This document shows, piece after piece, positions 30,125-59,390 of a stretch of DNA of 64,000 bases. The notes beneath the pieces were generated by a model, which searched no databases, was not told where the DNA came from, and was given only the letters and a program-made list of their open reading frames with translations. The DNA comes from a virus. Its lineage: Duplodnaviria > Heunggongvirae > Uroviricota > Caudoviricetes > Crassvirales. Position numbers and translations under genes: made by a program. The stretch spans positions 1 through 64,000 of IMG/VR virus record IMGVR_UViG_3300017605_000245. One strand, 5' to 3'. The stretch's first letter is position 1, and each line of letters begins with the position of its first letter.

Positions 30125-31687
30125 ATGAATCCATTATTATATGTAGATTTTTATAAACCTCATCATCAGGATATGTACCCTGAAAATATGACAAAACTTT
30201 ATTCTAATTTTACACCACGTAAAAGTAGATTAAAAGGAATTGACAATGTTGTTGTATTCGGTATTCAACATTTCGTATTAGAATATCTTATTAAAAAGTT
30301 TAATAATGATTTTTTTGGAAAACCTAAATTTAATACAAATCATTATGGTACTATTTTACCAGGAGTTATTGAAGAATATCGTCGTCATGTGTCAATTGAT
30401 ACAAAACGAATTGAAGCATTATGGGATTTAGGTTATTTACCTATTGAAATTAAAGCTTTAGATGAAGGTACTTTATGTCCTATTGGTGTACCAATGATGA
30501 CTATTACAAATACTCATCCTGATTTTGCATGGTTAGTTAACTATTTAGAAACTTTAATTAGTTGTCAATTATGGCAACCAGTTACTTCAGCAACAATTGC
30601 TTATGAATATAAAAAGATTCTTAATAAATATGCTATTGAAACTACAGGTTCAACTGAAGGAGTACAATGGCAAGCTCATGATTTTTCAATGCGTGGTATG
30701 TCTTCTGTTGAGTCTGCCATTCTTTCTGGTATGGGTCATCTTACATCTTTTACAGGAACTGATGTTATACCTGCAATTTATGCACTTGAAACATCTTATC
30801 AAGCGACTGGATTAATTGGTGCTTCTGTACCTGCTACTGAGCATTCTGTTATGTGTATGGGTACTAAAGAAAGTGAAATTGAAACTTTTCAAAGACTTTT
30901 AAATACATATCCAACAGGAATTCTATCTGTAGTATCTGATACTTGGGATTTATGGAAAGTTTGTACAGAATATTTACCAGCTTTAAAAGATCAAATCTTA
31001 GCTAGAGATGGTAAATTAGTTATTCGTCCTGACTCAGGAGATCCAGTAGATATTATTTGTGGTAATGGTGGTTTCTATACAAATGAAATAGGTTTAAACT
31101 TTGATGTAAAATTCCAAGAACAATCTAATGAAAGTAAAGGAGTAATTGAATTACTTTGGAATGCTTTCGGAGGAACTGTTAATGAACAAGGTTATAAAGT
31201 ATTAGATTCACATATTGGAGCTATTTATGGTGATAGTATTACTATGGACAGAGCTATTCAGATCTGTGAGAGACTTAAAGCTAAAGGTTTTGCAAGTACT
31301 AATATTGTATTAGGTATAGGAAGTTATACTTATCAATACAATACTCGTGATACATTTGGATTTGCAATGAAAGCAACGTACGGGGAAACATTAGAATTTG
31401 ATAATGATTACAGTGTTAATGGAGATAGTATTTACAAGTCTGTAGGGAGAGAAATATTTAAAGATCCAATTACAGATGATGGCACTAAGAAATCTAAAAA
31501 AGGTTTATTATGTGTTGTCAACGATACATTAGTTGCGGGATTAAAAGAAGGGGAAATTGCGGTACTTGATCAGTGTAGTAGTTATCAAGAATCACTTGGT
31601 TTACTTACAACAGTATTTAAAGACGGTAAACTTATTAAAGAAACTACTTTGGATGAGATTAGAGAACGTTTAAATTCTACATTATAA
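30125..31687 (+). CDS. Nicotinamide phosphoribosyltransferase-like (NAMPT/NadV family; alternatively a NARP1 Namat-type enzyme)
   Basis: LLYVDFYKPHHQDMYPENMTKLYSNFTPRKSR matches the NAMPT N-terminal block (TDSYK.THY.QYP......Y...R). HDFSMRGMSS and IRPDSGDPVD match the NAMPT GFGxRG and (V/I)RPDSG(D/N)P blocks. 520 aa. Confidence 0.8.
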   Translation: MNPLLYVDFYKPHHQDMYPENMTKLYSNFTPRKSRLKGIDNVVVFGIQHFVLEYLIKKFNNDFFGKPKFNTNHYGTILPGVIEEYRRHVSIDTKRIEALWDLGYLPIEIKALDEGTLCPIGVPMMTITNTHPDFAWLVNYLETLISCQLWQPVTSATIAYEYKKILNKYAIETTGSTEGVQWQAHDFSMRGMSSVESAILSGMGHLTSFTGTDVIPAIYALETSYQATGLIGASVPATEHSVMCMGTKESEIETFQRLLNTYPTGILSVVSDTWDLWKVCTEYLPALKDQILARDGKLVIRPDSGDPVDIICGNGGFYTNEIGLNFDVKFQEQSNESKGVIELLWNAFGGTVNEQGYKVLDSHIGAIYGDSITMDRAIQICERLKAKGFASTNIVLGIGSYTYQYNTRDTFGFAMKATYGETLEFDNDYSVNGDSIYKSVGREIFKDPITDDGTKKSKKGLLCVVNDTLVAGLKEGEIAVLDQCSSYQESLGLLTTVFKDGKLIKETTLDEIRERLNSTL

Positions 31688-32637
31688 TGAAAGTATTAAA
31701 TTTAACAAATAACGAAACCTCAGATATTAAATTTGAGGTTTCTAACTTTCCAGATGGTCAACAACAGGTTAAAATATTAGATTTTAATTATGTATTAAAA
31801 GGTAATTATTCACCAGAATATAAGATTGAATGTTCTAAAATATTTAATAATCCGATTCAAATTAAAGCAAGATTAAATAACTTTCAAGATTTAGAGTTAC
31901 TTATTTGTGTAACTAAATCTTTAAGAGGATTAGGTGTTAAAGAAATTCATTTATATGCACCATATTTCTTAGGAAGTAGAAGTGATAGAAAATTTGAAAC
32001 AGGTTCTAATAATTATCTTAAAGATGTTATATGTCCTATTATAAATTCTCTTAACTTTGAATCTGTAATAGTAATTGACCCTCATAGTGATGTACTTGAA
32101 GCTTGTTTAAACAACTTTAAAAAGTTTAGTAATTTAGATTTAGTAAAATGGATAATTAGTAATAATCCTCAAAATACTAAACCTTTATCTGATTTTATTC
32201 TAATATCACCTGATGCAGGTGCAAATAAGAAAATCTTTAAAGTTGCTGAACAAATTGGTTATACTGGAGATATTATTACTTGTAGTAAATCTAGAGATAT
32301 TGATGGTAAATTAACTAAAACTGAAGTTCCTATTAAAGCTCCTCATTTTGGTAAAGATATGATTATTATAGATGATATTTGTGATGGAGGGGCTACTTTT
32401 CTAAATATAGCTAAAGAATTTCATAAAAAATATGAAGAAGCTTATGATTGGAAAGGAATTAAACCTAAAATCTATTTAATAGTAACTCATGGAATCTTTT
32501 CTAAAGGTTTTAAAGAACTCAATCAATATTTTGATGGTATATACTGTACTAACAGTTATAGTGATTTAAATAGTCCTGAAATGTCTTTAAAATATGATAA
32601 CACATTATATAAAGTTAAACAATTAAATGTATTTTAA
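31687..32637 (+). CDS. Ribose-phosphate pyrophosphokinase (Prs) family protein (PRPP synthetase or NARP1 Adps-type)
   Basis: PRPP-binding loop MIIIDDICDGGATF (Prs VDDMIDTGGT). ILISPDAGANKK (Prs VVSPDxGGV). 316 aa. Start overlaps the NAMPT-like stop (TAATG). Confidence 0.75.
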   Translation: MKVLNLTNNETSDIKFEVSNFPDGQQQVKILDFNYVLKGNYSPEYKIECSKIFNNPIQIKARLNNFQDLELLICVTKSLRGLGVKEIHLYAPYFLGSRSDRKFETGSNNYLKDVICPIINSLNFESVIVIDPHSDVLEACLNNFKKFSNLDLVKWIISNNPQNTKPLSDFILISPDAGANKKIFKVAEQIGYTGDIITCSKSRDIDGKLTKTEVPIKAPHFGKDMIIIDDICDGGATFLNIAKEFHKKYEEAYDWKGIKPKIYLIVTHGIFSKGFKELNQYFDGIYCTNSYSDLNSPEMSLKYDNTLYKVKQLNVF

Positions 32638-33531: not shown

Positions 33532-34056
33532 ATGGAAGAAGAAATATGGAAAGATGTTGTTGGATTTGAAAATCTTTATCAAATTAGTAATTTAGGACAA
33601 GTTAAAAGTTTAGAACGAACTATTAAAAATAGAAAAATTAAAAGTAAAATAATAAAAACATTTCTTATTAATAATAAGTATTTAAAATGTACTTTGCATA
33701 AAGAAAATAAATCTTTTAAATTTTTTATACATAGATTAGTTTGTTTACACTTTTTACCAATTATTGAAAATAAGAATCAAGTCAATCATATTGATAAAAA
33801 TTCTTTAAATAATAATTTGAATAACTTAGAATGGGTATCTCGTATTGAAAACATGTGTCATGCATACAAAACAATAAAAACATCTTCAAAATATACAGGT
33901 GTTTATTGGAAGAATAGGGAACAAAAATGGTTTTCTGAAATAAGTATTAATAATAAAAATATTTATTTAGGTAGATTTGACAATGAAGAAGATGCATACC
34001 AAGCTCGAGTAAATTACGAAATTGAGAATAATATTAATAATAAATATTTATGGTAA
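33532..34056 (+). CDS. HNH homing endonuclease (NUMOD4-like N-terminus + HNH + AP2-like C-terminus)
   Basis: WKDVVGFENLYQISNLGQVKSL (NUMOD4-like). HIDKNSLNNNLNNLEW (HNH H-N-N). YTGVYWKNREQKWFSEISINNKNIYLGRFDNEEDA (AP2/ERF-like DNA-binding domain). Confidence 0.6.
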   Translation: MEEEIWKDVVGFENLYQISNLGQVKSLERTIKNRKIKSKIIKTFLINNKYLKCTLHKENKSFKFFIHRLVCLHFLPIIENKNQVNHIDKNSLNNNLNNLEWVSRIENMCHAYKTIKTSSKYTGVYWKNREQKWFSEISINNKNIYLGRFDNEEDAYQARVNYEIENNINNKYLW

Positions 34057-39848: not shown

Positions 39849-40091
39849 ATGACGAATGATGAAATTATAACAAAGATTAGAGAATATCTGAAGTGGTCTC
39901 ACAATAGTGACAAAGAGATTACAATTACAGATAGATTAAAAGAAGACCTTGAGTTAGATAGTATAGATATTATAGAACTAACTCTTGAAATTGAACAAGC
40001 TTTCAATATGAGAATACCTGATAACGAAATAGAATATTGTAAAACAGTTAAAGACCTTTTAAATTCAATACACAAATATGAAAGAACTTGA
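39849..40091 (+). CDS. Acyl carrier protein-like
   Basis: 80 aa. DLELDSIDIIELTLEIEQAFNMRIPDNE matches the ACP phosphopantetheine-attachment block ([28 protein letters not shown]), with the Ser in DSID. Confidence 0.6.
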   Translation: MTNDEIITKIREYLKWSHNSDKEITITDRLKEDLELDSIDIIELTLEIEQAFNMRIPDNEIEYCKTVKDLLNSIHKYERT

Positions 40092-40509
40092 AGATAAAAT
40101 TTTAAATTATTTAAACCAAAAACCACCTCTTGTTCCAAGAATGAGACTTGACATACATGGAAATCTCAGTAGAGATAGTAATCGTAAAATTATTTATGAT
40201 TTACATCCGTTTAAAACAGGACTACATGTTTTAGATAATCGTTATCGAAAATACTATACAGGTGTAACATTGAACTACATTACTTACGATTTGTTAAAAG
40301 CAAAGTATCGTAAAAGTGATGTAGCTAAATGTTTAAAAGAATTACATTTAAACGGTAAAATTAAGTCATTAAGATGTCCTGACATTAAACAAGTGGTATT
40401 TGAAAATAATCAGTCTATGCATGTAAATTATGTAAGAGGTGGTTATGGGAGCACAAACATTGAAGTATTACACGAATATTTAAATCAATTTATAAAAGAT
40501 GAACAATAA
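40078..40509 (+). CDS. Hypothetical basic protein
   Basis: 143-aa ORF. Start overlaps the ACP gene's end. Confidence 0.3.
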   Translation: MKELEDKILNYLNQKPPLVPRMRLDIHGNLSRDSNRKIIYDLHPFKTGLHVLDNRYRKYYTGVTLNYITYDLLKAKYRKSDVAKCLKELHLNGKIKSLRCPDIKQVVFENNQSMHVNYVRGGYGSTNIEVLHEYLNQFIKDEQ

Positions 40510-40897
40510 ACATTTAGTTGCCGTATACGGTTCTTTAAGAGCTGGATTACACAATCACAGATTATTAGACAATGAAGAATCAACACAGCTTGGTACATTT
40601 AAAACACCACCAATTTACAAACTATTTAGTTTAGGTGGATTTCCAGGGTTACATAAAGATGGTACAACAGAAGTTACTGTAGAGGTATATGAAGTATCTG
40701 AAGATGTATTTAAATCTTTAGATAGATTAGAAGGTTATTATCCTGACAGACTTGACTATTCAATGTATGTTAGAGAACAAATTGAAACACCATTTGGTGA
40801 TGCTTGGATTTATTTTTACAACTCTGATAGATACAGTCAAAATAAGATGGTAGAATCAGGTGATTGGACAGAATATATGAATTTAAAATCAGCTTAA
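40499..40897 (+). CDS. Gamma-glutamyl cyclotransferase-like (AIG2/GGCT fold)
   Basis: LVAVYGSLRAGLHNHRLL...LGGFPGL...VEVYEVSEDVFKSLDRLEGYYP follows the GGCT pattern (YGTL..G..N...L...YP.L......V.G.L..V....LD..EG). Confidence 0.6.
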   Translation: MNNKHLVAVYGSLRAGLHNHRLLDNEESTQLGTFKTPPIYKLFSLGGFPGLHKDGTTEVTVEVYEVSEDVFKSLDRLEGYYPDRLDYSMYVREQIETPFGDAWIYFYNSDRYSQNKMVESGDWTEYMNLKSA

Positions 40898-40898
40898 T

Positions 40899-41138
40899 AT
40901 GTTACCAACAGCAGAAGAATTTTTAAGTAATACATCTATGTTAAATAAAAAACTTTTTCCTAAAAAAGAAAGAGATTTTGACCAAGCAGTAGATAGGATG
41001 AAGGAGTTCGCAAAACTTCATGTTGAAGCAGCTTTGAATAAAGCAAGCAAAGAAGCTCAATTAACAGGAGATGGTCTGTATGAATGGGTAGATGAAGACT
41101 CTATATTAAATGCATATCCATTAACAAATATTAAATAA
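40899..41138 (+). CDS. Hypothetical protein
   Basis: 79-aa ORF. Confidence 0.3.
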   Translation: MLPTAEEFLSNTSMLNKKLFPKKERDFDQAVDRMKEFAKLHVEAALNKASKEAQLTGDGLYEWVDEDSILNAYPLTNIK

Positions 41139-41141
41139 ATT

Positions 41142-41528
41142 ATGAAAAAATTATTATTATTATTCTTAATGCTATTCACATTTAGTGGATTTGCACAAGA
41201 TAAACAGTTTATTAAAAACTACAATTCTGCAATTCTTATTAACGCAGATGGTAGTAATAGTGATTGGCAAGTTTTAGACACAAGACTTATCTTCAATTAT
41301 GGTGGAGATAATACTAAAATTAAAATGTATGCTAATTCTAAAGTATTTAATTTTACAAGAATTGGTGAAACAACTAAAGGTACTACACCTGGAGGTATGA
41401 AACACTATAATTTAAAATTAATGGACGATGAAACAGGTGAAACAGTATTGTTACAAATGTTCGTAGATGAAAAATATGGTTGTAGGTTTGTAGATAATAA
41501 CGGAGATATGCTCCAATTAAGTAATTAA
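41142..41528 (+). CDS. Secreted hypothetical protein
   Basis: Signal peptide MKKLLLLFLMLFTFSGFAQ. 128 aa. Confidence 0.35.
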   Translation: MKKLLLLFLMLFTFSGFAQDKQFIKNYNSAILINADGSNSDWQVLDTRLIFNYGGDNTKIKMYANSKVFNFTRIGETTKGTTPGGMKHYNLKLMDDETGETVLLQMFVDEKYGCRFVDNNGDMLQLSN

Positions 41529-41948
41529 ATGAATAAAGAATTTATACCTTATGAAGAAACTTTAGTTCTATTAAATTTAGGATTTGATGAAGATTGTGTA
41601 GCTTCTTATCGTACACACAATAAGTATAAAGGAGAATTAGACTTTCAATATACAAGTTCTTCATATTTAGAAGAAGAAAATAAAATAAAGTGGATAAAAT
41701 GTATTAAAGCACCTCTTTATCAACAAGCCTTTAGATGGTTTAGAGAGAAATATGACTTACATCCTTCATTTACTCGTTGGCAAGAATTTAACGTTAAGTT
41801 TAAGTCTGATATATTTCCTACATTATATAAAGTACTAATAATTGATGAAAATATTAAAAATACAAAAAATGTAGGTAACTATAATATTTATGAAGAAGCA
41901 GAATTAGCTTGTCTAAGAAAATTAATTGAAATAGTAAAAAATAAATAA
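41529..41948 (+). CDS. Hypothetical protein
   Basis: 139-aa ORF. Confidence 0.3.
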   Translation: MNKEFIPYEETLVLLNLGFDEDCVASYRTHNKYKGELDFQYTSSSYLEEENKIKWIKCIKAPLYQQAFRWFREKYDLHPSFTRWQEFNVKFKSDIFPTLYKVLIIDENIKNTKNVGNYNIYEEAELACLRKLIEIVKNK

Positions 41949-41958
41949 ATTTAACAAA

Positions 41959-42657
41959 ATGAAAAAAATTGGAATCGTAGCTTGGGGAACAAGTGTAAAC
42001 ACTTTCGGAGTAACAACAATGTATGCAGACTTTTTTAGTAAATTTGGTGTAGTTGAAATGATTATGCCTAATGAGACAGAAGCTCGTGATTTAGACTTAT
42101 TAGTATTACCTGGTGGTCCAGATGTAGATACAAGAAGATATCTTGAGAAAGGTGATAAACTATCTTATTGGACACAAAAACCATGTCCTTATAAAGAAAG
42201 ATTTGATGCTGAATTATTACCTTTATATATGGAAAAAAATACTCCTATATTTGGTATCTGTAGAGGTCATCAGACACTATACGTAGAACTTGGAGGTAAA
42301 TTGTTTCAAGACTTATGGGAAGAAGGTTACGACCATCCAACAAATGGTGAGAATCGTAAAACTAAAGTACACTTTGTTAAAACAAACGCAAGAGCTGCGC
42401 AAGGTTTAGCCTTACAATTACCTGCTAAATTTGAAGTGAATTCTATTCACCACCAAGCGGTAGACCACAGACATATGCCTCAGATAGGAACGGTATTAGC
42501 TTGTCATACAAGTAAAGCAGGTAATATTGATGGTATCATTGAAGCAATGACATACTTTCCTGATTATCCTGCACATACAGTACAGTGGCATCCAGAAGAA
42601 ATTAGAGATGATTTCTCAATAGCTTTGATTGAACAATTATTAACTTTAAATGACTAA
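41959..42657 (+). CDS. Class I glutamine amidotransferase-like / peptidase C26 (gamma-glutamyl hydrolase, PuuD-like)
   Basis: LVLPGGPD. Nucleophile elbow GICRGHQ. Later HHQ and W...HPE blocks. Confidence 0.65.
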   Translation: MKKIGIVAWGTSVNTFGVTTMYADFFSKFGVVEMIMPNETEARDLDLLVLPGGPDVDTRRYLEKGDKLSYWTQKPCPYKERFDAELLPLYMEKNTPIFGICRGHQTLYVELGGKLFQDLWEEGYDHPTNGENRKTKVHFVKTNARAAQGLALQLPAKFEVNSIHHQAVDHRHMPQIGTVLACHTSKAGNIDGIIEAMTYFPDYPAHTVQWHPEEIRDDFSIALIEQLLTLND

Positions 42658-42659
42658 TT

Positions 42660-42887
42660 ATGCACGCTACTGCTACAGAACAAAAAAAGTTTAATCCTAT
42701 TACTTTAGAACTTACATTTGAAACGCAAGCAGAATTAGACAACATTAAAAAATTCATTAGAAATGTATCTGCAGATTCACTAAAAGAAGCAGTAGCAATA
42801 CATTCTATTCCTGTGTCAAAACAATTAGATATTCAAACTATTGTAAATTTTATTAATGTTGTAAACACTGCTTTAAAAAATACTTAA
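42660..42887 (+). CDS. Hypothetical protein
   Basis: 75-aa ORF. Confidence 0.3.
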   Translation: MHATATEQKKFNPITLELTFETQAELDNIKKFIRNVSADSLKEAVAIHSIPVSKQLDIQTIVNFINVVNTALKNT

Positions 42888-42889
42888 AT

Positions 42890-43804
42890 ATGCAAACGCT
42901 AAGAAAAAAGAAAATTACTTTATTTAGACCTACAATTTATAGTCGTCATCCATCTCACGATATTCTACGATTAAAACATCGTAAAATTCAAGTATTACCT
43001 TATCGTTCTGTAATTCGTTTTGGCTCAACGACAGAATGTAACGATACTATTGATAAAGGTGGTCAAAGAATTGAAATTAATTCTATTCAGTCTATTAAGA
43101 ATTCAGCCTCTAAACTTCTAATGAAACAGAAATTTATGGAGGCTGAAGTTAAAACTGCAAAATGGTGTAAATATGAACAAATTAATAATGTAGCTGAAGG
43201 TGGTATTGGATTTACTATCAACAATACTACTACTGACCAAATCGAATTTCCAATTGTAGCTAAAGCACATCATGGTTCTAAAGGTCGCGGTAATACGTTA
43301 ATTAAATCTCTTGAAGAATTTGAAGCTTGGAAAGTTGGTAAAACACTTAACCATTATATCTTTGAGAAATTTATGAACTTTGGTCATGAATTCAGATTAC
43401 ATGTAACTGAACAAGGTTGTTTCTACACTTGTAGAAAAGCTTTAAAGGCAGATGTACCTGAAGACCAAAAATGGAGACGTCATGACGATATCTGTGTGTG
43501 GTTCTTAGAAGATTCTGAACATTTTCATAAACCTAATTCATGGGATGATATTGTAGCGGATTGTGTGAAAGCTTTAAAAGCTATTGGTGCAGATATTCTT
43601 TCATTTGACGTAAGAGTTCAAACTCCTACCGATAGTAAAGGTAATAGACGTGAATATCAAGATTTCATTTTACTAGAATGTAATAGTGCTAGTTCAATGG
43701 ATAATGGTAGAGACGAAGTTTCTGTATGTGCTCAGAAATATATTGATGAAATTCCTAAAGTAATTATTGAAAAAGCTAAGAAACATGGTTTATACAGTAG
43801 ATAA
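42890..43804 (+). CDS. ATP-grasp ligase (RimK/GshB-like)
   Basis: KLLMKQKF...FPIVAKAHHGSKGRGNTLIKSLEEFEAW...YIFEKFMNFGHEFRLHV follows the RimK/ATP-grasp pattern (K..q..l....g...P.v.KP..Gs.G.Gv......E.......y..QEfI....dyRv.v). Confidence 0.6.
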   Translation: MQTLRKKKITLFRPTIYSRHPSHDILRLKHRKIQVLPYRSVIRFGSTTECNDTIDKGGQRIEINSIQSIKNSASKLLMKQKFMEAEVKTAKWCKYEQINNVAEGGIGFTINNTTTDQIEFPIVAKAHHGSKGRGNTLIKSLEEFEAWKVGKTLNHYIFEKFMNFGHEFRLHVTEQGCFYTCRKALKADVPEDQKWRRHDDICVWFLEDSEHFHKPNSWDDIVADCVKALKAIGADILSFDVRVQTPTDSKGNRREYQDFILLECNSASSMDNGRDEVSVCAQKYIDEIPKVIIEKAKKHGLYSR

Positions 43805-43825
43805 GTTTAAAAGAATTTAAATAAA

Positions 43826-44878
43826 ATGAAAAAAAGAAAAAATTTAGTTATAATGTATGCTGATGGTAGAGTAAATGACTCCATCAGCGACTTACTTAAG
43901 AATTTAGCGGAAGAAGTTACTGTTGTAAATCATCGTAATCCTACATCAAGACCTGACTTACTTATATTTACAGGAGGTGAAGATGTACATCCTTCTTTCT
44001 ATAATGAACAGACAGGTGCTTATACACAATGTAATATTAAAAGAGATAATGTTGAAAGAGACACTTTTGATATGTATTATGATGTACCTAAATTAGGTAT
44101 TTGTAGAGGATCACAATTCTTAACTGTAATGAGTGGAGGTAAACTTGCTCAACATGTTGAAAATCATGGTAATTCTCATACTATTGAGAATATCTTCGGT
44201 GGTAAAATGACAGTTACATCAACACACCATCAAATGATGTACCCATTTAATATTAAAGATAAATCTAACTATGAGTTAATAGCGTGGTCTGAATACTTTA
44301 GAAGTAAAGCTTACTTAAACGGAGACAATAAAGAAATTGATACACCTAATGATTTCTTAGAACCTGAGGTAGTATATTATAAACCAAGTCAATCATTATG
44401 TATTCAAGGTCATCCTGAGTTTAATACAGCATCTGAAGAATTTGTAGATTTCACATTAAATCTTATTAAAAAGTATATCTTTAACGAAGTAGGTCAATTT
44501 AAGAATGATGAAGTTCAAGACGTATTAGATGCTATTGAACAAGCTCAATTTATTCCTCTTAATAAGAAAGTAACTACTACGGAGAGTTTAGGTTGGCATA
44601 CATTTAATCCTAATCCAGGAATTGAAGCACAATCTTTTAAAGTTAGAACATCGCCACCTAAAATCATTGATTTACTACGTAGACAATACGAAGAAGAATT
44701 GAAACATGAAAGACATGAAACAATTCCACAAATGAAGCAATCAGAGACTATTCGTCGTTTTCTAGATTCAACTGAAGATCTTAATAAAACAGATAATGTT
44801 TCTGAAACCGAATCAACTGAAAATAAACGTAGTGTTTCAAGTTATTATTTCAAAGGTATCAATAATTATAAAAAATAA
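43826..44878 (+). CDS. Second class I glutamine amidotransferase-like / C26 hydrolase with C-terminal extension
   Basis: LLIFTGGEDV. GICRGSQFL. STHHQM. CIQGHPEF. 350 aa. Confidence 0.6.
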   Translation: MKKRKNLVIMYADGRVNDSISDLLKNLAEEVTVVNHRNPTSRPDLLIFTGGEDVHPSFYNEQTGAYTQCNIKRDNVERDTFDMYYDVPKLGICRGSQFLTVMSGGKLAQHVENHGNSHTIENIFGGKMTVTSTHHQMMYPFNIKDKSNYELIAWSEYFRSKAYLNGDNKEIDTPNDFLEPEVVYYKPSQSLCIQGHPEFNTASEEFVDFTLNLIKKYIFNEVGQFKNDEVQDVLDAIEQAQFIPLNKKVTTTESLGWHTFNPNPGIEAQSFKVRTSPPKIIDLLRRQYEEELKHERHETIPQMKQSETIRRFLDSTEDLNKTDNVSETESTENKRSVSSYYFKGINNYKK

Positions 44879-44883
44879 ACAAA

Positions 44884-45696
44884 ATGAATAAATATAATAT
44901 TACAATCGGCTCTGACCCTGAAGTGTTTTTAGAAAAAAATGGTGAAATCGTATCTGCAATTGATTTAATTCCAGGTACTAAATGGGAACCTCATCCAATT
45001 ACAGATAAAGGTCATTTCATTCAAACTGACAATATTGCTTTCGAATTCAACATTCCACCTTCTAAAACGGAAGGTGAGTTTGTAGAGAATATTAATTTTG
45101 TCATGAATTATCTAGACGTAATTGCAAAAGCAAATGGTGGTGAATTATCGAAAAAGTCGAGTGGTTTAATTGCTGAAGAACATTTGGTTCATCCTCAAGC
45201 AATGGAATTTGGTTGTGAACCTGATTTCAATCCTTACATTCAAGATGTAAACCCTCGACCTGAAGCAGTAGATACAAATCTTAGATGTGTTGGTGGTCAT
45301 ATCCATATCGGATATCCTAATCCAAGTCAAGAAACATCTGAGAAAATTGTAAAAGCTTTCGACATGTTTGTAGCATTACCTGCGTTATTGATTGATACAG
45401 ATGAACGTAGACGTGAACTGTATGGTAAAGCAGGCGCTTTTAGATTTAAAGACCCATGGGGTGTAGAATGTCGTGTATTATCCAATTTCTGGATTCACTC
45501 TGATGAATTGATGAGTTGGGTTTACAGAAATACAATCAAAGCAGTGAACGCTGTTTTAGATGGTGAAATTGATGATTTACTTGAAAAATACTCAGCAAGA
45601 GTAGTAGATGCTATTAACACTAATGATAAATCGTTAGCTAAAGAACTAATAAGAGATATTTTTCAAAAAGAAGTAGAAGAAGTATTAACAAAATAA
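44884..45696 (+). CDS. GS/GCS2-like carboxylate-amine ligase (amidoligase)
   Basis: N-terminal ITIGSDPEVFL (G-x-[DE]-x-E-hhh, as in YbdK/GCS2 TLGVEEEFLLVD). GGHIHIG (the HVHVG block of GS-like ligases). Nearly the same gene set was noted in phage amidoligase operons in published comparative-genomic work. Confidence 0.5.
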   Translation: MNKYNITIGSDPEVFLEKNGEIVSAIDLIPGTKWEPHPITDKGHFIQTDNIAFEFNIPPSKTEGEFVENINFVMNYLDVIAKANGGELSKKSSGLIAEEHLVHPQAMEFGCEPDFNPYIQDVNPRPEAVDTNLRCVGGHIHIGYPNPSQETSEKIVKAFDMFVALPALLIDTDERRRELYGKAGAFRFKDPWGVECRVLSNFWIHSDELMSWVYRNTIKAVNAVLDGEIDDLLEKYSARVVDAINTNDKSLAKELIRDIFQKEVEEVLTK

Positions 45697-45712
45697 CAAA
45701 ATAACAAAGCCA

Positions 45713-47638
45713 ATGTGTGGAATTTTTGGTCAAGCAACGAACAATCCTAATAAAATTAATCAGTCTAATATTAAAATATTAGGTATGGCAAATGAAACAA
45801 GAGGTCGAAACTCTTGTGGAATAACCTATGACGGTGAAATATATCTAGGATTAGATAAAGATAAATTATTTACAGACTTTGCAAAAGGTAAAACTTTTAA
45901 AGCAAAGAAATATCCTGTAATGTTTGGTCATACCAGACAAGCAAGTGTAGGAGTTATTAATCATCATAATGCTCATCCATTTGGTTTTGGTGACCATAAT
46001 GAAGGTTATGAATTTATTGCAGTACATAACGGTACATTATTGAATCATGACGAATTAGCGAAGAAATATGAAATTGATACATTTCCTTCTTATTTAAACG
46101 ATAACAATATAAAATCGTATCGTACAAAAATTGATAGTGAAATTCTGTTAGAAATTATTCATAAAACAAATAGTTTAAAGGTTTTATCTGAATACAATGG
46201 TAGAGCGGCTTTAGTTTGGACAGATACTAAGAATCCTAATACAATTTATTTGTATAGTGGTAAAAGTGTACCTAGTGAAGGTGACGGACCAAACTTAGCA
46301 GTTGAAGAAAGACCTTTAAATGTATGGGTTGAAAATAAAAACAGTTTCTATTTCTCATCATTACCTGAAAGTTTGTATATAATAGGTGGTGATGCGAATA
46401 ATGTATTTCAAATCGATTACAACACTGTATATGCTGTTAAAAATGGTGATTTTAAACACGCTAGTAAAATTCTTATTAGTAGAAAGAAATGTTATCATGA
46501 ACGGAAGACGGTTTACGGGAGTACAACACATACAACAACGAATTCCAGCGTGGGGAACTCGTTTAGAAATCCTAATGCGTGTGGTTATGACCTCAATCGC
46601 AAAAGAACTATAGACACATCTGCGGTTGCTGATTATAGTTTTCAGAAAATTCACATTTTAGATGACAAATCTATCTTACAAGGTAAAACTAAAGATGGAA
46701 CTTACATTCAATCTTTTAGATATTATAGAAATGGTCATTTACTAAATGGAATTTGGATGTACATTCCTGAATATGGTTTCTATCCTGTAGCACAAACTGA
46801 AACACAAATGCATGATTTTATAAATCGTCATATGGGTGAAAAGTTTGATACTGTTACTGGTGAGTTTGATGTATTTAAGAAAATGAAAGTAGGTGAAGGA
46901 ATTATTGCTTTTAGTACTGTACCTGAAGGACTTGAAATGTGTAAATATTTTGTAGAAGGTGTAAGATTGGAAGACCTTATTGACTATAAAGTAATGGTTA
47001 ATCATAAAGCTCAAGGACTTAGAGATTTCTTTGACCCAATGAAAATGAGTCATATGGCTACAGACCCTGTTGTAAGTCTTTGTAGAGGTGCTCTTGACGC
47101 ACAAGGAATTTATTTCAATGGTGTATTATTTACAGGTATTTATGAAGGTTTAGACTATGATAAGAAATATTATTGTAGACACGGTAATTTATGGAAAACT
47201 AAATCTTTAGTTGAAACAGACGAACCTTTAGTAATTCAATTATCTTACGAAAAGAAACCTGACCCTACATTTTCAGCTAAAACATTGGATGCAACTATCC
47301 ATACATTAGCTACAATGGAATCTGATTACATTCGTGAACAAGTTCAAACTAAAATTGATTTTGATTTAAAAAAGAAATCTGATTTAGAAACGGAGGTTAA
47401 TGAAGTTGATGAAACATATTTTGATAATGAAAATAAAGAAGTTGTGACTAAAGCACAAATTGCTGAATTCTTATCAGAATCAATTGTTGAGTCGTTCGAA
47501 ACCATGGGAAACGAAATAGAAAGTTTAGAGATAGACTTAGAAAGATTTCCAGACCACGAATATACAAAAGCCGTAAAAAGTACGGTAATTGATATCAAAC
47601 TGTTATTAAGTGAATATACTAGAAAGTTAAAAAATTAA
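45713..47638 (+). CDS. Class II (Ntn) glutamine amidotransferase domain protein with long C-terminal extension
   Basis: Starts MCGIFGQ (N-terminal nucleophile Cys, as in GlmS/PurF/AsnB MCGI). 641 aa. I found no PP-loop SGGxDS in the C-terminal part, so it is not an AsnB/QueC-type synthetase by this test. Confidence 0.6.
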   Translation: MCGIFGQATNNPNKINQSNIKILGMANETRGRNSCGITYDGEIYLGLDKDKLFTDFAKGKTFKAKKYPVMFGHTRQASVGVINHHNAHPFGFGDHNEGYEFIAVHNGTLLNHDELAKKYEIDTFPSYLNDNNIKSYRTKIDSEILLEIIHKTNSLKVLSEYNGRAALVWTDTKNPNTIYLYSGKSVPSEGDGPNLAVEERPLNVWVENKNSFYFSSLPESLYIIGGDANNVFQIDYNTVYAVKNGDFKHASKILISRKKCYHERKTVYGSTTHTTTNSSVGNSFRNPNACGYDLNRKRTIDTSAVADYSFQKIHILDDKSILQGKTKDGTYIQSFRYYRNGHLLNGIWMYIPEYGFYPVAQTETQMHDFINRHMGEKFDTVTGEFDVFKKMKVGEGIIAFSTVPEGLEMCKYFVEGVRLEDLIDYKVMVNHKAQGLRDFFDPMKMSHMATDPVVSLCRGALDAQGIYFNGVLFTGIYEGLDYDKKYYCRHGNLWKTKSLVETDEPLVIQLSYEKKPDPTFSAKTLDATIHTLATMESDYIREQVQTKIDFDLKKKSDLETEVNEVDETYFDNENKEVVTKAQIAEFLSESIVESFETMGNEIESLEIDLERFPDHEYTKAVKSTVIDIKLLLSEYTRKLKN

Positions 47639-47642
47639 TCAA

Positions 47643-49355
47643 ATGAAAGAAAAAATTGTTGTTACAATAAATAATGAGAGTCTACCTCAATCACAATGTA
47701 GAAAATTTGACGCAGGTTGGTATAAAATTGGAGATATAAATGTTCAAAATTCAGGAGGATGTTACTTTATAGGAGACCAATTCTATAGAGAGGAAACAGG
47801 TAGAGTTGTTTTCGATTTAAGAAAAGGTAGTTATGTATTGAAAAATCAAGATGTTGTTGAAGGTATCATTACCTTTGACAACGCTGGTTACAATTTAGGA
47901 CATTTCACTTATTCTGATGCAGATATTGTAGTAAATACTGTTTCAGGTAATAAATATCCTCTTATTTCTGAAGAAATCATTCTTGATAATAAGAAATATA
48001 AAGAGAGATTATCTAATGGTGAATATTATGACATTGAGTTATTACCTTCATCTCAATTTAATAAGATAACTCCACCTACTAACGATTACAAAACAAGTTT
48101 ACCTTATGACTCAAAAGGTATTACTGACGTTTATTTAGATAAACATGTAAAATCAGATGTTAAAATTCACCCAAAAGTAGAAGATTATTCTAAAATCTTA
48201 GAAGGTCTTTCTTTCGGTCTTGAATTTGAAACTGTGGCAGGTGTGTTACCTACAAGAATTTTAGATAAAACAGCTTTAATTCCATTGAGAGATGGTTCTA
48301 TTGCAGGTATTGAATACGTTACAGTTCCTTTAGAGGGTGCGAAAGGTATTCAAACGTTATTGACAACTGTTGAAGAACTTAATAAAAGAACTAAGTTTGA
48401 TGACACTTGTTCAATGCATTTACATTTAGGTAACGTACCAAGAACTAAAGAATTTATTTTAGCATTTTTCAAATTAAGTTTGAAATTTCAGAATGATATC
48501 TTTGAAATGTTCCCATTATACAAAAAGTATAATTTTGGTGTAAAACGTAAAAACTATAGTAAACCTTACGATAGATATCAATTCTTATCTCAAATGGATA
48601 AGTCGATTAATTCTAATAATATTAACGATAATTTTGACGTACTATATTCGTATTTATCACAAGGAGAACCTTTTGGTGTGGTAAATAATGATTTGAAAAA
48701 CGTTGATAGTCATCCTGCAGATAGAAATGGTACTCAAAAATGGAATATCGCAAATCGTTACTATTTCCATAATTTCATTCCATTAATCTTTGGTAATAAA
48801 CAAACGATTGAGTTTAGAATTCATACCCCAACGTATGATGCTAATAAAATATTATTCTTCTTATATTTTAATTCAATCTTAGTTAATTTTACTAAGAAAT
48901 ATGAACGTGAAATTCTACAAGACCCATATTTTCTTTCTCAATTTAAAGGTTTAAAATCTCTAGTAATTTACTATATTGAAAACAACGTTAAATCTGTTAG
49001 TCGTATAAGATTTAGAGATTTTATTATAGATTCTATTGATAAAAGAAAAGGTGAAATTGCAAATCAATCTGCAAAAGGAGATATTGTAGGTAAAGAAAAT
49101 AATGTTAGATGTTCTACATATATCAATTGGAAGTCATATATGAAGATAACTGATTCTACAATAAGTGGTAACTTAATTCATTCACTTTCTGAATTAGATA
49201 TGTGTTATCAAGAAAGAAGACAACTTATCTTAGACACATATCATGCTAATAAAATCAGTCTTACTCAAGCTAGAGTTGAGAGTGATGCTTTAGAGAAAGA
49301 TTACAGAACAAGAAGAGATATTATTAGTAAAACTAACGAACCTGTAGAATGGTAG
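47643..49355 (+). CDS. Second GS/GCS2-like amidoligase candidate (large)
   Basis: GLEFETVAG (G-x-E-x-E) and SMHLHLG parallel the motifs of the 44884-45696 protein. 570 aa. Confidence 0.4.
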   Translation: MKEKIVVTINNESLPQSQCRKFDAGWYKIGDINVQNSGGCYFIGDQFYREETGRVVFDLRKGSYVLKNQDVVEGIITFDNAGYNLGHFTYSDADIVVNTVSGNKYPLISEEIILDNKKYKERLSNGEYYDIELLPSSQFNKITPPTNDYKTSLPYDSKGITDVYLDKHVKSDVKIHPKVEDYSKILEGLSFGLEFETVAGVLPTRILDKTALIPLRDGSIAGIEYVTVPLEGAKGIQTLLTTVEELNKRTKFDDTCSMHLHLGNVPRTKEFILAFFKLSLKFQNDIFEMFPLYKKYNFGVKRKNYSKPYDRYQFLSQMDKSINSNNINDNFDVLYSYLSQGEPFGVVNNDLKNVDSHPADRNGTQKWNIANRYYFHNFIPLIFGNKQTIEFRIHTPTYDANKILFFLYFNSILVNFTKKYEREILQDPYFLSQFKGLKSLVIYYIENNVKSVSRIRFRDFIIDSIDKRKGEIANQSAKGDIVGKENNVRCSTYINWKSYMKITDSTISGNLIHSLSELDMCYQERRQLILDTYHANKISLTQARVESDALEKDYRTRRDIISKTNEPVEW

Positions 49356-50053
49356 TACAACATTATATTAAAGAAACCCGTTATGGGTTACATGCAGATT
49401 ATTCTAAATTATTAGGACCAGATTGGTCAATCTTTTTGAAAGATATGTTAGAGTCGGACTATGCTTCATATTTAGCACATATGCTTGACCAGATTTACCT
49501 TTCAGGTGATAAAGTATATCCTACTAAAAAAGAAGATCTATTTAAGGCATTTACAGCTACCAATTTTGACGAGATTAAAGTCGTCATTATTGGTTCTGAG
49601 CCTAAAAATGAATTATCTAATGGTTTAGCCTTTGGTACATACGGTGCAGTAAAAGACCCCATTAAATGTCCTCATTTGAATTTAATTCAAGATAACTTAA
49701 AGTTTAATAAACTCGTATCTGAACATAGATTCTTTGACCGTTCAATGGTAAGTTGGACACAACAAGGTGTGATGATGTTAAATTCCTCATTGGTTGCAGA
49801 TAGTACACTTCCAAATAAATATTCTCTGTATTTCAGAAATTTTACAAGAGAAGTAATAAAAGCACTATCTGAAGAAAAAGCAGGAATTGTATTTGCTTTC
49901 ACAAGTACAGAATTATATAACTTGTATAAAGATAGTATTGATGACGCATATCATTATATCTTTCATTATCCAGTTGTAGACATGTCTTGTGATATCTTTG
50001 ATGATATTAATGAAAAATTAAAAGACACGCGTGAAATACCTATTATATGGTAA
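49349..50053 (+). CDS. Uracil-DNA glycosylase family-1 homolog with substituted catalytic residues
   Basis: [41 protein letters not shown] aligns with UNG [57 protein letters not shown] matches [23 protein letters not shown] aligns with HPSPLS. The water-activating GQDPYH is GSEPKN here (D to E, Y to K, H to N). Confidence 0.6.
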   Translation: [234 protein letters not shown]

Positions 50054-56838: not shown

Positions 56839-57109
56839 TTTAACTGAATATTTAGTTAAAACAAACGAAAGACGTTACAATATACTTAAAGCGATTGAAG
56901 AGGCACAAGAGTTAGCACTCATACTTACACAATCTTTATCTAAAGGTGTACCTGAAGAAAAGATTACTGAAGAAATAGGTGACTTAAAATTTAGATTAGG
57001 TGTAATTGAAAGTTATTATAGTAAGAGAGCTGTTAGACAGAGAATCTTATATAAGAAAAGTAAATGTGTTAAATATATTGGACAAGGTCGATATAAAAAT
57101 AATGTGTAA
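56813..57109 (+). CDS. Hypothetical protein
   Basis: 98-aa ORF. Confidence 0.3.
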   Translation: MKDKLTVNNLTEYLVKTNERRYNILKAIEEAQELALILTQSLSKGVPEEKITEEIGDLKFRLGVIESYYSKRAVRQRILYKKSKCVKYIGQGRYKNNV

Positions 57110-57606
57110 TGAGTCAAGTTAGATATATTTCAGATACTCATTTTGGTCATTTAAATATGGCTTTAAGAAGAGGGTTTAAGACCGTTGAAGAACACGACGA
57201 ACATCTTGTATCTGAATGGAATAAAGTAGTATCTAAAAAGGATGTAACATGGATTCTTGGAGATATTACTATGGAAAAAGGTAATTATGAAATACTTGAT
57301 AAACTTAACGGAATTAAAAAAGTTATATTAGGTAATCATGATGAACCTCAACACGTTCCTAAATTATTGGAATATGTAAATAAAGTTTGTGCTGTACAGT
57401 ATGTTAAATCTAAAGAATTTGGAAACTTAATTTTTAGTCATATACCTATACATCCACAAGAATTAGAATATAGATTTAATATTAATATTCATGGACATGT
57501 ACATGAAAATACTTTACCAGATAAACGTTATATTAATGTATCTGCAGAAGTTATTAATTATCAACCACAATTATTAAAACAATTAATATTCAATGACAGA
57601 AACTAG
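57109..57606 (+). CDS. Metallophosphoesterase (calcineurin-like)
   Basis: SDTHFGH, ILGDIT, LGNHDE, IHGHVHE: the metallophosphoesterase motif series. Confidence 0.6.
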   Translation: MSQVRYISDTHFGHLNMALRRGFKTVEEHDEHLVSEWNKVVSKKDVTWILGDITMEKGNYEILDKLNGIKKVILGNHDEPQHVPKLLEYVNKVCAVQYVKSKEFGNLIFSHIPIHPQELEYRFNINIHGHVHENTLPDKRYINVSAEVINYQPQLLKQLIFNDRN

Positions 57607-57922
57607 ATTTGATGAAGTTGTAGAAACTGTTTTAAATAGTATTCGAGATACTCTTGTTATAAAAGGACGAGAGTATCGTCGAAACAATAATCCATTTCAT
57701 AATTTTGATGTAGGTTCACAACGAAGTGGTCTTATACGTGAAAAAGTTTTAGATGGATTTCTATTAAAACATGAAATATCTATTGCAGATATCACAAACG
57801 ATTTAGAGAAAGGGATATTACCTAAAATTTCAACAATTGATGAGAAATTTGGAGATAATATTGTTTATCTAATTATAAAAATGGCTTCTATTATTGATAA
57901 AATAGAACAACAAGATGAGTAG
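57593..57922 (+). CDS. Hypothetical protein
   Basis: 109-aa ORF. Confidence 0.3.
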   Translation: MTETRFDEVVETVLNSIRDTLVIKGREYRRNNNPFHNFDVGSQRSGLIREKVLDGFLLKHEISIADITNDLEKGILPKISTIDEKFGDNIVYLIIKMASIIDKIEQQDE

Positions 57923-58697
57923 GACATTAGTTATAGGAGATATTCATGGAAATTATAAAGGTTTTAGACAAGCACTAGAACGATGTAATTTTAACAATGA
58001 CCGAGATACTCTAATTTCATTAGGAGATGTTGTAGATGGTCATAATGAATCTTTTGAAGTAGTTGAAGAATTACTTAGAATAAAGAATTTAATTCCGATT
58101 AAAGGTAACCATGATGATTGGTTTAATACTTGGATTCAAACTGGAGATAATCCTTCAAATTGGCAACAAGGTCAGAAAGCTACAGGAATGAGTTATTTAG
58201 CACATTCTAGACCAGAACAACCTTGGTTTGAATTTAATTTTGATAAAACTGGATTTGATATTTCAATTAAACCTAATGATATTCCAGATAATCATATTGA
58301 ATTCTTTGCAAATCAACTACCTTATTATATCGATAAAGATAATAATTTATTTGTACATGGAGGATTTAATCGTCATTATCCGTTAAAAGAACAAGGAGAT
58401 ATCTTATGGTGGGATAGAGACTTATGGTCACAAGCATTATCTTATAAAGGAATGTCTGCTGTTGAAGGAATTAAACATCCTAAATTTAAAATGGTCGATG
58501 AATTCAATGAGATATTTATAGGTCATACTTCAACTCAATTTTGGGGAGAAGATAAACCTATGAATGCTGCAAATATTTGGAATCTTGATACAGGTGGTGG
58601 TTGGAATGGTAGAGTAACAATAATGGATATAGATACCAAAGAATTCTGGCAATCAGATTTAGGTAAAGAATTATATCCAGAATTTAAAGGTAGATAA
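57915..58697 (+). CDS. PPP-family Ser/Thr phosphatase / ApaH-like metallophosphoesterase
   Basis: VIGDIHGN, LGDVVDGH (GDxVDRG-like), IKGNHDD: lambda-phosphatase/PPP signature blocks. Confidence 0.65.
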   Translation: MSRTLVIGDIHGNYKGFRQALERCNFNNDRDTLISLGDVVDGHNESFEVVEELLRIKNLIPIKGNHDDWFNTWIQTGDNPSNWQQGQKATGMSYLAHSRPEQPWFEFNFDKTGFDISIKPNDIPDNHIEFFANQLPYYIDKDNNLFVHGGFNRHYPLKEQGDILWWDRDLWSQALSYKGMSAVEGIKHPKFKMVDEFNEIFIGHTSTQFWGEDKPMNAANIWNLDTGGGWNGRVTIMDIDTKEFWQSDLGKELYPEFKGR

Positions 58698-59390
58698 ATG
58701 AGTAAAAATACAGTAGTCCTATTAGGACATTATGGTTCAGATGAGGTGATAAGTTGTTCAGCTTGGACAAGCACCTCTCGTGAACTTACAGATGAAAAGA
58801 GGAGTAGAATTCCTAAATTAATTAACATGTTATGGTCAGAAGGTCATGAGACACCATTTGAGAAGGCTACAATCCACTTTCTCGTAGATTGTGACATAGC
58901 ATCCCACATTCATCTTTTAAAGCATAGAATCGCTTCTATTAATGCTGAAAGTGCTAGATATAAAGAATTGAAGGAAGATAAAATGTATATTCCTGAAGAT
59001 TGGTATAAACCTTATCAAAATGATGATGACTATAAAGGTATTGCAAATACAGGTATTGGTCATACTAAATCTTTAGCTGACGCATTAAAAGTTTATTCTG
59101 AATTAGGTAATAGACTTTATCATGAATCATTAGAACAGTTATCTAAATACGGTAATCGTAAAAGAGCTAAAGAGTCTGCACGATTCTTTAAAGGTTATAA
59201 CTCTCAAATTCAATCTGACATTAGTTTTAATATGAGAAGTTTTGCTAATTTTATTAAACTCAGAAATAGTGAACATGCTCAATTAGAGATTAGAGAAATT
59301 GCACAACAAATGTGGGATTTAGTAGAAGGAATTGAAGGACAACCTTTCAAATATAGTTTGGAAGCAATTAGTAATCGAATTAATAAATAA
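58698..59390 (+). CDS. thyX: Flavin-dependent thymidylate synthase ThyX
   Basis: ThyX signature LKHRIASINAESARY (RHRxxSxNExSxRY). 230 aa. Confidence 0.75.
   Translation: MSKNTVVLLGHYGSDEVISCSAWTSTSRELTDEKRSRIPKLINMLWSEGHETPFEKATIHFLVDCDIASHIHLLKHRIASINAESARYKELKEDKMYIPEDWYKPYQNDDDYKGIANTGIGHTKSLADALKVYSELGNRLYHESLEQLSKYGNRKRAKESARFFKGYNSQIQSDISFNMRSFANFIKLRNSEHAQLEIREIAQQMWDLVEGIEGQPFKYSLEAISNRINK

Follow-up and report, generated by a model that had tools for sequence, protein, structure and literature searches.

A somewhat expanded amidoligase cassette among the replication genes of an uncultured marine crAss-like phage

The DNA analysed here, hereafter the window, is a 64,000-nucleotide stretch of a virus of the Crassvirales (IMG/VR record IMGVR_UViG_3300017605_000245, positions 1 to 64,000). 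Its region 39849-50053 most probably carries the known phage amidoligase cassette, whose enzymes would ligate and trim gamma-glutamyl-amine compounds in the cytoplasm; an acyl carrier protein (ACP) gene and the small genes g4, g5, g6 and g8 would be inserts, and a gene related to uracil-DNA glycosylase (UDG) would be in decay (probability of this reading as a whole, roughly 0.7). The region is filled exactly by 14 open reading frames (ORFs) on the plus strand, g1 to g14, with intergenic spacing of -14 to +21 nt. Comparison across related loci resolved these into seven cassette genes, the occasional companion g2, five inserts (the ACP gene, g4, g5, g6 and g8) and one backbone gene. The cassette of the window is a somewhat expanded version of one already described by genome comparison.

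The seven cassette enzymes are given below, each with its frequency in a set of 55 loci, which consisted of 50 viral contigs encoding relatives of the N-terminal nucleophile (Ntn) enzyme and five other loci, and onto which all window proteins were mapped.

40499-40897, plus strand: g3 (GGCT), GGCT/GGACT-type gamma-glutamyl(amine) cyclotransferase, cassette core; Pfam GGACT, 2.9e-20; 50 of 55 loci
41959-42657, plus strand: g7 (C26a), class-I glutamine amidotransferase (GATase)-fold gamma-glutamyl hydrolase, frequent cassette member; Peptidase_C26, 4.3e-29; 37 of 55 loci
42890-43804, plus strand: g9, divergent ATP-grasp ligase, cassette core; matches to Pfam ATP-grasp, PHROG 2599 and, as a profile, the PDB; 53 of 55 loci
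43826-44878, plus strand: g10 (C26b), second class-I GATase-fold hydrolase, frequent cassette member; Peptidase_C26, 2.5e-16; 44 of 55 loci
44884-45696, plus strand: g11 (L2), phiEco32-type COOH-NH2 ligase type 2, cassette core; PF14395, 2e-10; 55 of 55 loci
45713-47638, plus strand: g12 (Ntn), Ntn (class II) glutamine amidotransferase or gamma-glutamyl amidohydrolase, cassette core; GATase_6, 1.2e-11; 51 of 55 loci
47643-49355, plus strand: g13 (AL2), Amidoligase_2 carboxylate-amine ligase with the fold of glutamate-cysteine ligase (GCL), glutamine synthetase (GS) and PafA; Amidoligase_2, 6.8e-7; 47 of 55 loci

GGCT, ATP-grasp, L2, Ntn and AL2 were treated as the five core genes, to which C26a and C26b are added in the seven-enzyme set. 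All five core genes were found in 42 of the 55 loci and all seven enzymes in 32, and nine of the 13 incomplete loci end at contig ends. The co-clustering of the cassette genes is far beyond chance, and the catalytic residues of the enzymes are intact and conserved across relatives. The recurrent gene order was primase, GGCT (one or two copies), C26a, ATP-grasp, C26b, L2, Ntn and AL2, with or without the UDG-like gene, followed downstream by g15, g16, an exonuclease gene (Exo), g18 and the ribonucleotide reductase gene (RNR). A preliminary description of this DNA had assigned all 14 genes to one pathway. Its expectation of a conserved gene neighbourhood was borne out for the seven enzymes; because only seven genes recur across the 55 loci, a single 14-gene pathway is unsupported.

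Exactly the same enzyme types make up a 'peptidoglycan modification cassette' of seven genes described earlier (Duhaime 2017, PMC5498523, citing Hardies 2013), the phages named being RIO-1, phiEco32, 7-11, PA11, tf, MR299-2, LUZ24, PaP3 and CW02, and an alteration of the cell surface that blocks superinfection was proposed as its function. In two papers from 2023 and 2025 (PMC10580990, PMC11706807), the prediction is credited to Iyer 2009 and the function is described as yet to be explored. The statement of the preliminary description that such gene sets have been predicted computationally was thus accurate, and no biochemical study of the amidoligase cassette was found in the literature search. 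The cassette is annotated in RefSeq for Cellulophaga phage phi14:2 and is also present in LUZ24-like and 7-11/GAP52-like podoviruses, in Cronobacter phage GAP52, in Proteus phage J3S and in Leptolyngbya phage Lbo-JY46; in LUZ24-like Pseudomonas phages the core adjoins the primase/helicase (PMC3890496).

Compared with the phiEco32-type cassette (typified first in phiEco32; also LUZ24/PaP3/tf, Salmonella 7-11/Cronobacter GAP52, Pseudoalteromonas RIO-1/PSA-HP1 and phi14:2), the window has the same five core families, likewise clustered in the early/replication region by the primase, and its gene order is that of phi14:2, of the human-gut crAss-like phage cr108_1 and of the 50 viral contigs. The clade of the window differs in adding the two C26 hydrolases, in an extra N-terminal beta domain of AL2, the hidden Markov model (HMM) of the clade AL2 missing the podovirus versions, and in a clade-specific C-terminal domain of the Ntn enzyme. 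The window genome alone adds the ACP gene, g4, g5, g6 and g8 inside the cassette.

The genome that hosts the cassette is that of an uncultured low-GC marine crAss-like phage. The window is a tailed-phage genome fragment with a GC content of about 30%, and its proteins include the major head protein, portal, large terminase and DNA polymerase. A megablast search of the region against 50,697 phage records gave no DNA-level match. By protein similarity, the nearest cultured relative was phi14:2 (Crassvirales, Steigviridae; 38% identity on the amidoligase), followed by cr108_1 and Lbo-JY46. In phi14:2 and cr108_1 the order is primase, cassette genes, UDG, RusA-like endonuclease, PD-(D/E)XK exonuclease and RNR, and the window agrees, the cassette in its replication module being flanked by the primase gene on one side and by the UDG-like gene and the RusA-like and PD-(D/E)XK nuclease genes on the other. 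The record of cr108_1 bases its annotation of backbone genes on resemblance to crAss001 and that of cassette genes on resemblance to phi14:2 and to podoviruses of Pseudomonas and Citrobacter; this split in annotation sources suggests that the cassette was inserted into a conserved crAss replication backbone.

HMM and structure checks confirmed nearly all family and motif calls of the preliminary description (PP-binding, GGACT, two Peptidase_C26, GATase_6 and the ligases), with significant matches to most of the families it had named; g2, g4, g5, g6 and g8 matched none. Its general reading of gamma-glutamyl/amide-bond ligation plus hydrolysis also holds.

L2 is the best conserved of the cassette proteins, and its match to PF14395, a family itself named after phiEco32, exceeded the gathering score. 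Residues D11, E13, E54 and H139 and several Arg residues are invariant among relatives. In a tblastn search, L2 matched 319 phage records, including 121 Pseudomonas, 94 Escherichia and 22 Vibrio phages, with 35-43% identity to the phage homologues listed among these records; neither the single sequence nor a profile retrieved a relative of solved structure by sequence search. AL2 belongs with the Amidoligase_2 ligases (PF12224) of GCL/GS fold, and its fold matches GCL/GCS2. Besides the ligase domain it has the N-terminal beta domain, at about aa 1-110, and its C-terminal part is helical. For the crAss-type AL2 there are 590 clusters of homologous proteins, mostly on metagenomic contigs. The ATP-grasp protein g9 matched Pfam ATP-grasp at 6.4e-5, under the gathering score, and PHROG 2599 ('ribosomal protein S6 glutaminyl transferase') at 1.2e-18. 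A profile of 23 g9 homologues matched PurD in the PDB (6.4e-7), as well as PurK, cyanophycin synthetase and Ddl; single-sequence searches of solved structures with AL2 and with g9 gave no useful match.

Of the cleaving enzymes, GGCT carries the YGSL and LEGY motifs. The triad Cys101/His211/Glu213 of C26a is kept in at least 95% of 36 homologues, and in C26b Cys93 and the HPE motif are conserved, its C-terminal tail being of low complexity. The top NCBIfam match of C26b was gamma-glutamyl-CDP-amidate hydrolase (1.5e-6, under the cutoff). In the Ntn enzyme, C2, R75, N106, G107 and D141 are invariant. We take R75, N106 and D141 to correspond to R73, N101 and D127 of PurF; such residues, as in EgtC, hold glutamine or a gamma-glutamyl compound by its free alpha-amino-acid end. 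The AlphaFold2 model of the Ntn enzyme (mean confidence, pLDDT, 82), when compared with the PDB by Foldseek, matched the GlmS glutaminase domain (4.5e-12) and EgtC (9e-9), and also PurF and AsnS. This catalytic domain is followed by a beta-rich domain peculiar to the family (aa 311-520) and then by a tail of helices (aa 522-640). An exhaustive HMMER search found the beta-rich domain in 105 of 1.84e9 cluster representatives, confined to its own family and, except for four shorter hits, nearly always at aa ~300-560 of proteins of ~520-710 aa. No structural match to this domain stood out, the listed PDB and BFVD hits of the whole-protein model being to the N-terminal domain.

The subfamily labels used in the preliminary description proved too specific. 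Neither a glutathione synthetase nor a GCS2 match was obtained for the ligases in Pfam or NCBIfam, so that a 'GshB-type' ATP-grasp reduces to a family-level resemblance under curated cutoffs and a GCS2-type ligase to likeness at the fold level. The same applies to the 'PuuD-type' hydrolase; PuuD is the top NCBIfam match of C26a (7.6e-12), at 45 bits against a cutoff of 266. The PuuA/PuuD and EgtA/EgtC systems likewise pair a carboxylate-amine ligase with a C26 or Ntn gamma-glutamyl amidohydrolase, but the window ligases are not of GlnA type, all similarities fall under the curated family cutoffs, and three ligases and four cleaving enzymes are present instead of one each. A check for Puu-type catabolism found no GlnA-family gamma-glutamyl-amine synthetase.

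The enzyme set comprises three ATP-dependent carboxylate-amine ligases of two folds and four proteins of glutamine or terminal gamma-glutamyl families. The cassette would be expressed together with the replication genes and would act in the cytoplasm; no signal peptide was found on any cassette enzyme. GCL/GS-fold and ATP-grasp ligases both use acyl-phosphate intermediates, and by this route the ligases are predicted to form amide bonds, most likely linking a gamma-glutamyl group to an amine. The Ntn enzyme may supply ammonia from glutamine or remove a terminal gamma-glutamyl group, and the C26 enzymes and GGCT may trim and recycle gamma-glutamyl groups, with 5-oxoproline as the form released by GGCT. 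A free alpha-amine on the glutamyl group is needed by C26 enzymes of the PuuD/gamma-glutamyl hydrolase type and by GGACT-type cyclotransferases, and for the GGCT, C26 and Ntn families both the alpha-amino and the alpha-carboxyl group of the glutamyl moiety have to be free. Because all four cleaving enzymes share this need, a small metabolite (a gamma-glutamyl-amine or a peptide) or a precursor, e.g., the stem peptide of peptidoglycan, is a likelier substrate than DNA or a Pup-like protein tag. The peptidoglycan stem-peptide precursor stands as the candidate substrate.

Several points weigh against this reading. Gamma-glutamyl specificity is suggested by family-level similarity under curated cutoffs, and sequence alone gives neither the substrate nor the product. 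By sequence comparison, the ATP-grasp protein and both GCL-fold ligases are too divergent to be placed in any characterised subfamily, and neither the C-terminal domain of the Ntn enzyme nor the N-terminal beta domain of AL2 has recognisable relatives. Furthermore, the start codon of the ACP gene lies 1 nt past the primase stop and the gene overlaps g2, from which it follows that the ACP gene is co-transcribed; the ACP may serve some purpose in this one genome. The UDG-like gene adjoins AL2 in 29 of the 55 loci, which could exceed the effect of shared ancestry.

Among the alternatives, the best supported, albeit unlikely, is tagging of a protein or peptide, with the GCL/PafA-fold ligases and the RimK-like ATP-grasp adding glutamate or a small peptide to a protein of host or phage, in the manner of pupylation or polyglutamylation, and the hydrolases erasing it. 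The PHROG label of the ATP-grasp protein is of RimK type, the AL2 fold fits Pup-like tagging, Ntn, AL2 and C26b have additional domains and tails of helices with which they could bind a macromolecule, and papers citing Iyer 2009 describe a theme of peptide modification. However, no small protein that is conserved beside the cassette and terminates in Glu or Gln was found; the C-terminal residues of g4, g8 and ACP are K, T and T, respectively, and g8 and ACP are absent from the related loci, with g4 recurring only elsewhere. Compared with PafA/Dop pupylation, the window lacks a Pup-like substrate gene and a proteasome link, and the companion enzymes suit free gamma-glutamyl compounds. The conserved glutamine-binding residues of the Ntn enzyme point the same way, and because the cleaving enzymes need a free glutamyl alpha-amino and alpha-carboxyl group, an internal peptide tag fits poorly.

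It is likewise improbable, in our assessment, that the cassette, a neighbour of replication genes in hundreds of phages, makes a phage-specific gamma-glutamylated amine, e.g., a modified polyamine or a nucleotide-linked amine, that serves replication, packaging or immune evasion, with the ACP recruited in this genome for a tethered intermediate. If true, this would represent a new class of phage-made metabolite, with a carrier-tethered intermediate as in butirosin biosynthesis. The butirosin side-chain pathway employs BtrI (ACP), BtrJ (ATP-grasp), BtrK, BtrH and BtrG (GGCT); it shares with the window an ACP, an ATP-grasp and an AIG2/GGCT-fold enzyme in one cluster, and the logic of a gamma-glutamyl protecting group, first attached and later taken off, is alike. 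Unlike the butirosin cluster, the window has no pyridoxal phosphate-dependent decarboxylase, monooxygenase or acyltransferase, its ACP is conserved with the cassette in none of the 55 loci, and its ATP-grasp protein has no specific similarity to a characterised family.

Very unlikely is the proposal that all 14 genes form one pathway in which the ACP tethers an intermediate, with a product that may be a DNA-base hypermodification tied to the UDG-like gene, the thymidylate synthase gene thyX and the phosphoesterase genes. This concerns the remaining genes of the region, which are as follows.

39849-40091, plus strand: g1, orphan ACP; PP-binding, 6.3e-11, with Ser38 in LDSID
40078-40509, plus strand: g2, protein of 143 aa that sometimes accompanies GGCT; no Pfam, NCBIfam or PHROG match
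40899-41948, plus strand: g4, g5 and g6, three small inserts particular to this lineage, which interrupt the cassette; no family match
42660-42887, plus strand: g8, lineage-specific insert of 75 aa; no family match; in none of the 55 loci
49349-50053, plus strand: g14, degenerate family-1 UDG homologue; NCBIfam UNG, 2.6e-25

Tight packing and common orientation of the 14 genes would suit a single pathway, but the dense packing extends past both sides of the region, within a plus-strand gene block spanning about 19.4 kb to 60.3 kb of the window, and a promoter and terminator scan gave results at chance level. Therefore, packing does not delimit a functional unit.

The ACP is the only unusual element of the region. 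It matched the NCBIfam acyl carrier protein at 1.6e-15, under the cutoff, and the intact phosphopantetheine-attachment residue Ser38 speaks for the single-pathway proposal, as does the resemblance of ACP, ATP-grasp and GGCT to BtrI, BtrJ and BtrG. Against a role as carrier of the cassette, as envisaged in the preliminary description, no copy of the ACP was detected across the 55 related loci and it had no relative among the viral contigs of IMG/VR, and a word-indexed search of 5.8 billion proteins returned only the ACP itself, with no close relative. Genes for a phosphopantetheinyl transferase (PPTase), adenylation enzyme, acyltransferase or decarboxylase were not found among the Pfam-scanned ORFs of the window, nor were a decarboxylase, acyltransferase or PPTase among the accessory ORFs of related cassettes. 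The distribution suggests that the ACP gene is probably a lineage-specific insert and not integral to the cassette.

In agreement with the preliminary description, the UDG-like protein is catalytically altered. Motif A reads GSEPK instead of GQDPY, the Leu-loop segment with its His reads HYPVVD instead of HPSPLS, and the NCBIfam UNG score was 89.5 bits against a 162-bit cutoff. Loss of the catalytic Asp and of the thymine-excluding Tyr could leave a larger pocket, which would favour a link to modified bases. Yet at least 17 loci, as well as Lbo-JY46, have intact cassettes from which the gene is missing or separated. At the AL2-g15 junction 12 loci have no copy, five have it elsewhere, and none was found anywhere in the Lbo-JY46 locus or beside the cassette of locus L002. 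The gene, taken in the preliminary description as the end of the cluster, belongs to the crAss backbone. The UDG-like proteins of the marine clade (loci L004-L046) have a degenerate motif A, with readings such as DSEPT and DNRPV, and most lack the motif-B His; canonical UDG was found in cr108_1, as the second such gene of L005, and at other positions in L045, L048, L054 and L055. The evidence, which is that of motifs and gene positions, indicates a probable decaying backbone gene of the crAss replication module, not a cassette member, and the protein of the marine clade may be a pseudo-enzyme or have changed specificity.

DNA-base modification also lacked its other enzymes. No ThyA-type dUMP hydroxymethylase, 5-hydroxymethyldeoxyuridine (5-hmdU) DNA kinase or other nucleotide kinase, or base-transfer family was found among the scanned window ORFs, a scan that covered neither small ORFs nor the roughly 12 kb by which the contig extends beyond the window. 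ThyX (Thy1/ThyX family, 1.7e-33) belongs to a normal dTMP synthase family.

The least likely alternative places the cassette in cofactor or nitrogen metabolism, where it would reshape folate-type polyglutamate tails or redirect glutamine/glutamate nitrogen to nucleotide synthesis; Peptidase_C26 is the folyl-poly-gamma-glutamate hydrolase family, RimK-family ATP-grasps include cofactor glutamate ligases, and the cassette always lies among replication and nucleotide genes (e.g., RNR, ThyX, dUTPase), but a FolC/Mur-type ligase and folate enzymes beyond ThyX were not found among the scanned ORFs, three different ligases and the Ntn enzyme exceed the needs of tail remodelling, and the position is weak evidence, since early and middle regions gather unrelated host-takeover genes such as the NAD+ reconstitution pair NARP1.

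The NARP1 genes of the window are given below; Namat and Adps constitute the phage NAD+ reconstitution pathway NARP1 (bioRxiv 10.1101/2024.02.11.579819).

30125-31687, plus strand: Namat/NAMPT-like gene; PHROG 448, 6.7e-190
31687-32637, plus strand: Adps/PRPP-synthetase-like gene; PHROG 619, 4.2e-61

The pair adjoins the cassette in Lbo-JY46; in GAP52 and in the window it lies upstream, at a distance of a few kb. A general link between NARP1 and the cassette was considered and rejected, as only one of 80 viral Namat loci had at least two cassette genes within 10 kb. Two calcineurin-like metallophosphoesterase genes are located directly upstream of thyX (57109-57606, 57915-58697 and 58698-59390, plus strand). 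According to a 2026 preprint, phage phosphatases counter RES-mediated NAD+ depletion.

Regarding the small genes, a homologue of g2 was found immediately upstream of GGCT in loci L004, L025 and L032, and two tandem GGCT paralogues occupy the place of g2 and the single GGCT of the window in L007-L017, L021, L023, L024, L036, L041 and L044. The g5 protein, which begins MKKLLLLFLMLFTFSGFAQ, has a signal-peptide-like N-terminus and was found in none of the 55 loci. Recurrences of g4 and g6 were observed only outside cassettes, in other phages. For g6 (41529-41948, plus strand; 139 aa, no family match), these are L002 (15058-15507), L094, L098, L100, L106 and L135, never inside a cassette and including Lbo-JY46 and several NARP1-bearing contigs; g6 appears to be a mobile small gene. 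The possibility that g2, g4, g5, g6 and g8 are decayed cassette enzymes was rejected, as none has similarity to the cassette families and g2 is unlike GGCT.

The accessory ORFs within related cassettes were mostly small proteins without assignment and endonuclease-like inserts, with no informative partner enzymes among them. By visual judgement, endonuclease-like ORFs break up the cassette in several related loci (e.g., L006 and L014). In the window, a NUMOD4/HNH/AP2 homing-endonuclease gene is located in the replication block (33532-34056, plus strand). Three loci, L011 among them, have inside the cassette an ORF with a weak GNAT-like acetyltransferase fold (Pfam, 0.005), which could be an alternative ligase; GNAT-fold peptide ligases reportedly belong to the theme treated in Iyer 2009. 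Outside the replication block, a GroEL-like chaperonin gene (9664-11163, minus strand; PHROG 5725, 2.1e-123) adjoins the large terminase gene.

For the preferred reading of a cytoplasmic gamma-glutamyl-amine cassette, the cultured phages phi14:2, LUZ24 and phiEco32 are the practical models, and the window opens no new route. What the window adds is the expanded seven-enzyme version in a marine crAss-like clade, a cross-locus comparison by which the ACP, the small ORFs and the UDG-like gene fall outside the true cassette, and a UDG-like neighbour that is losing its active site. The enzyme set is widespread, with a recurrent investment of five to seven genes in phages of Proteobacteria, Bacteroidota and Cyanobacteria, and identification of the substrate would explain this investment.

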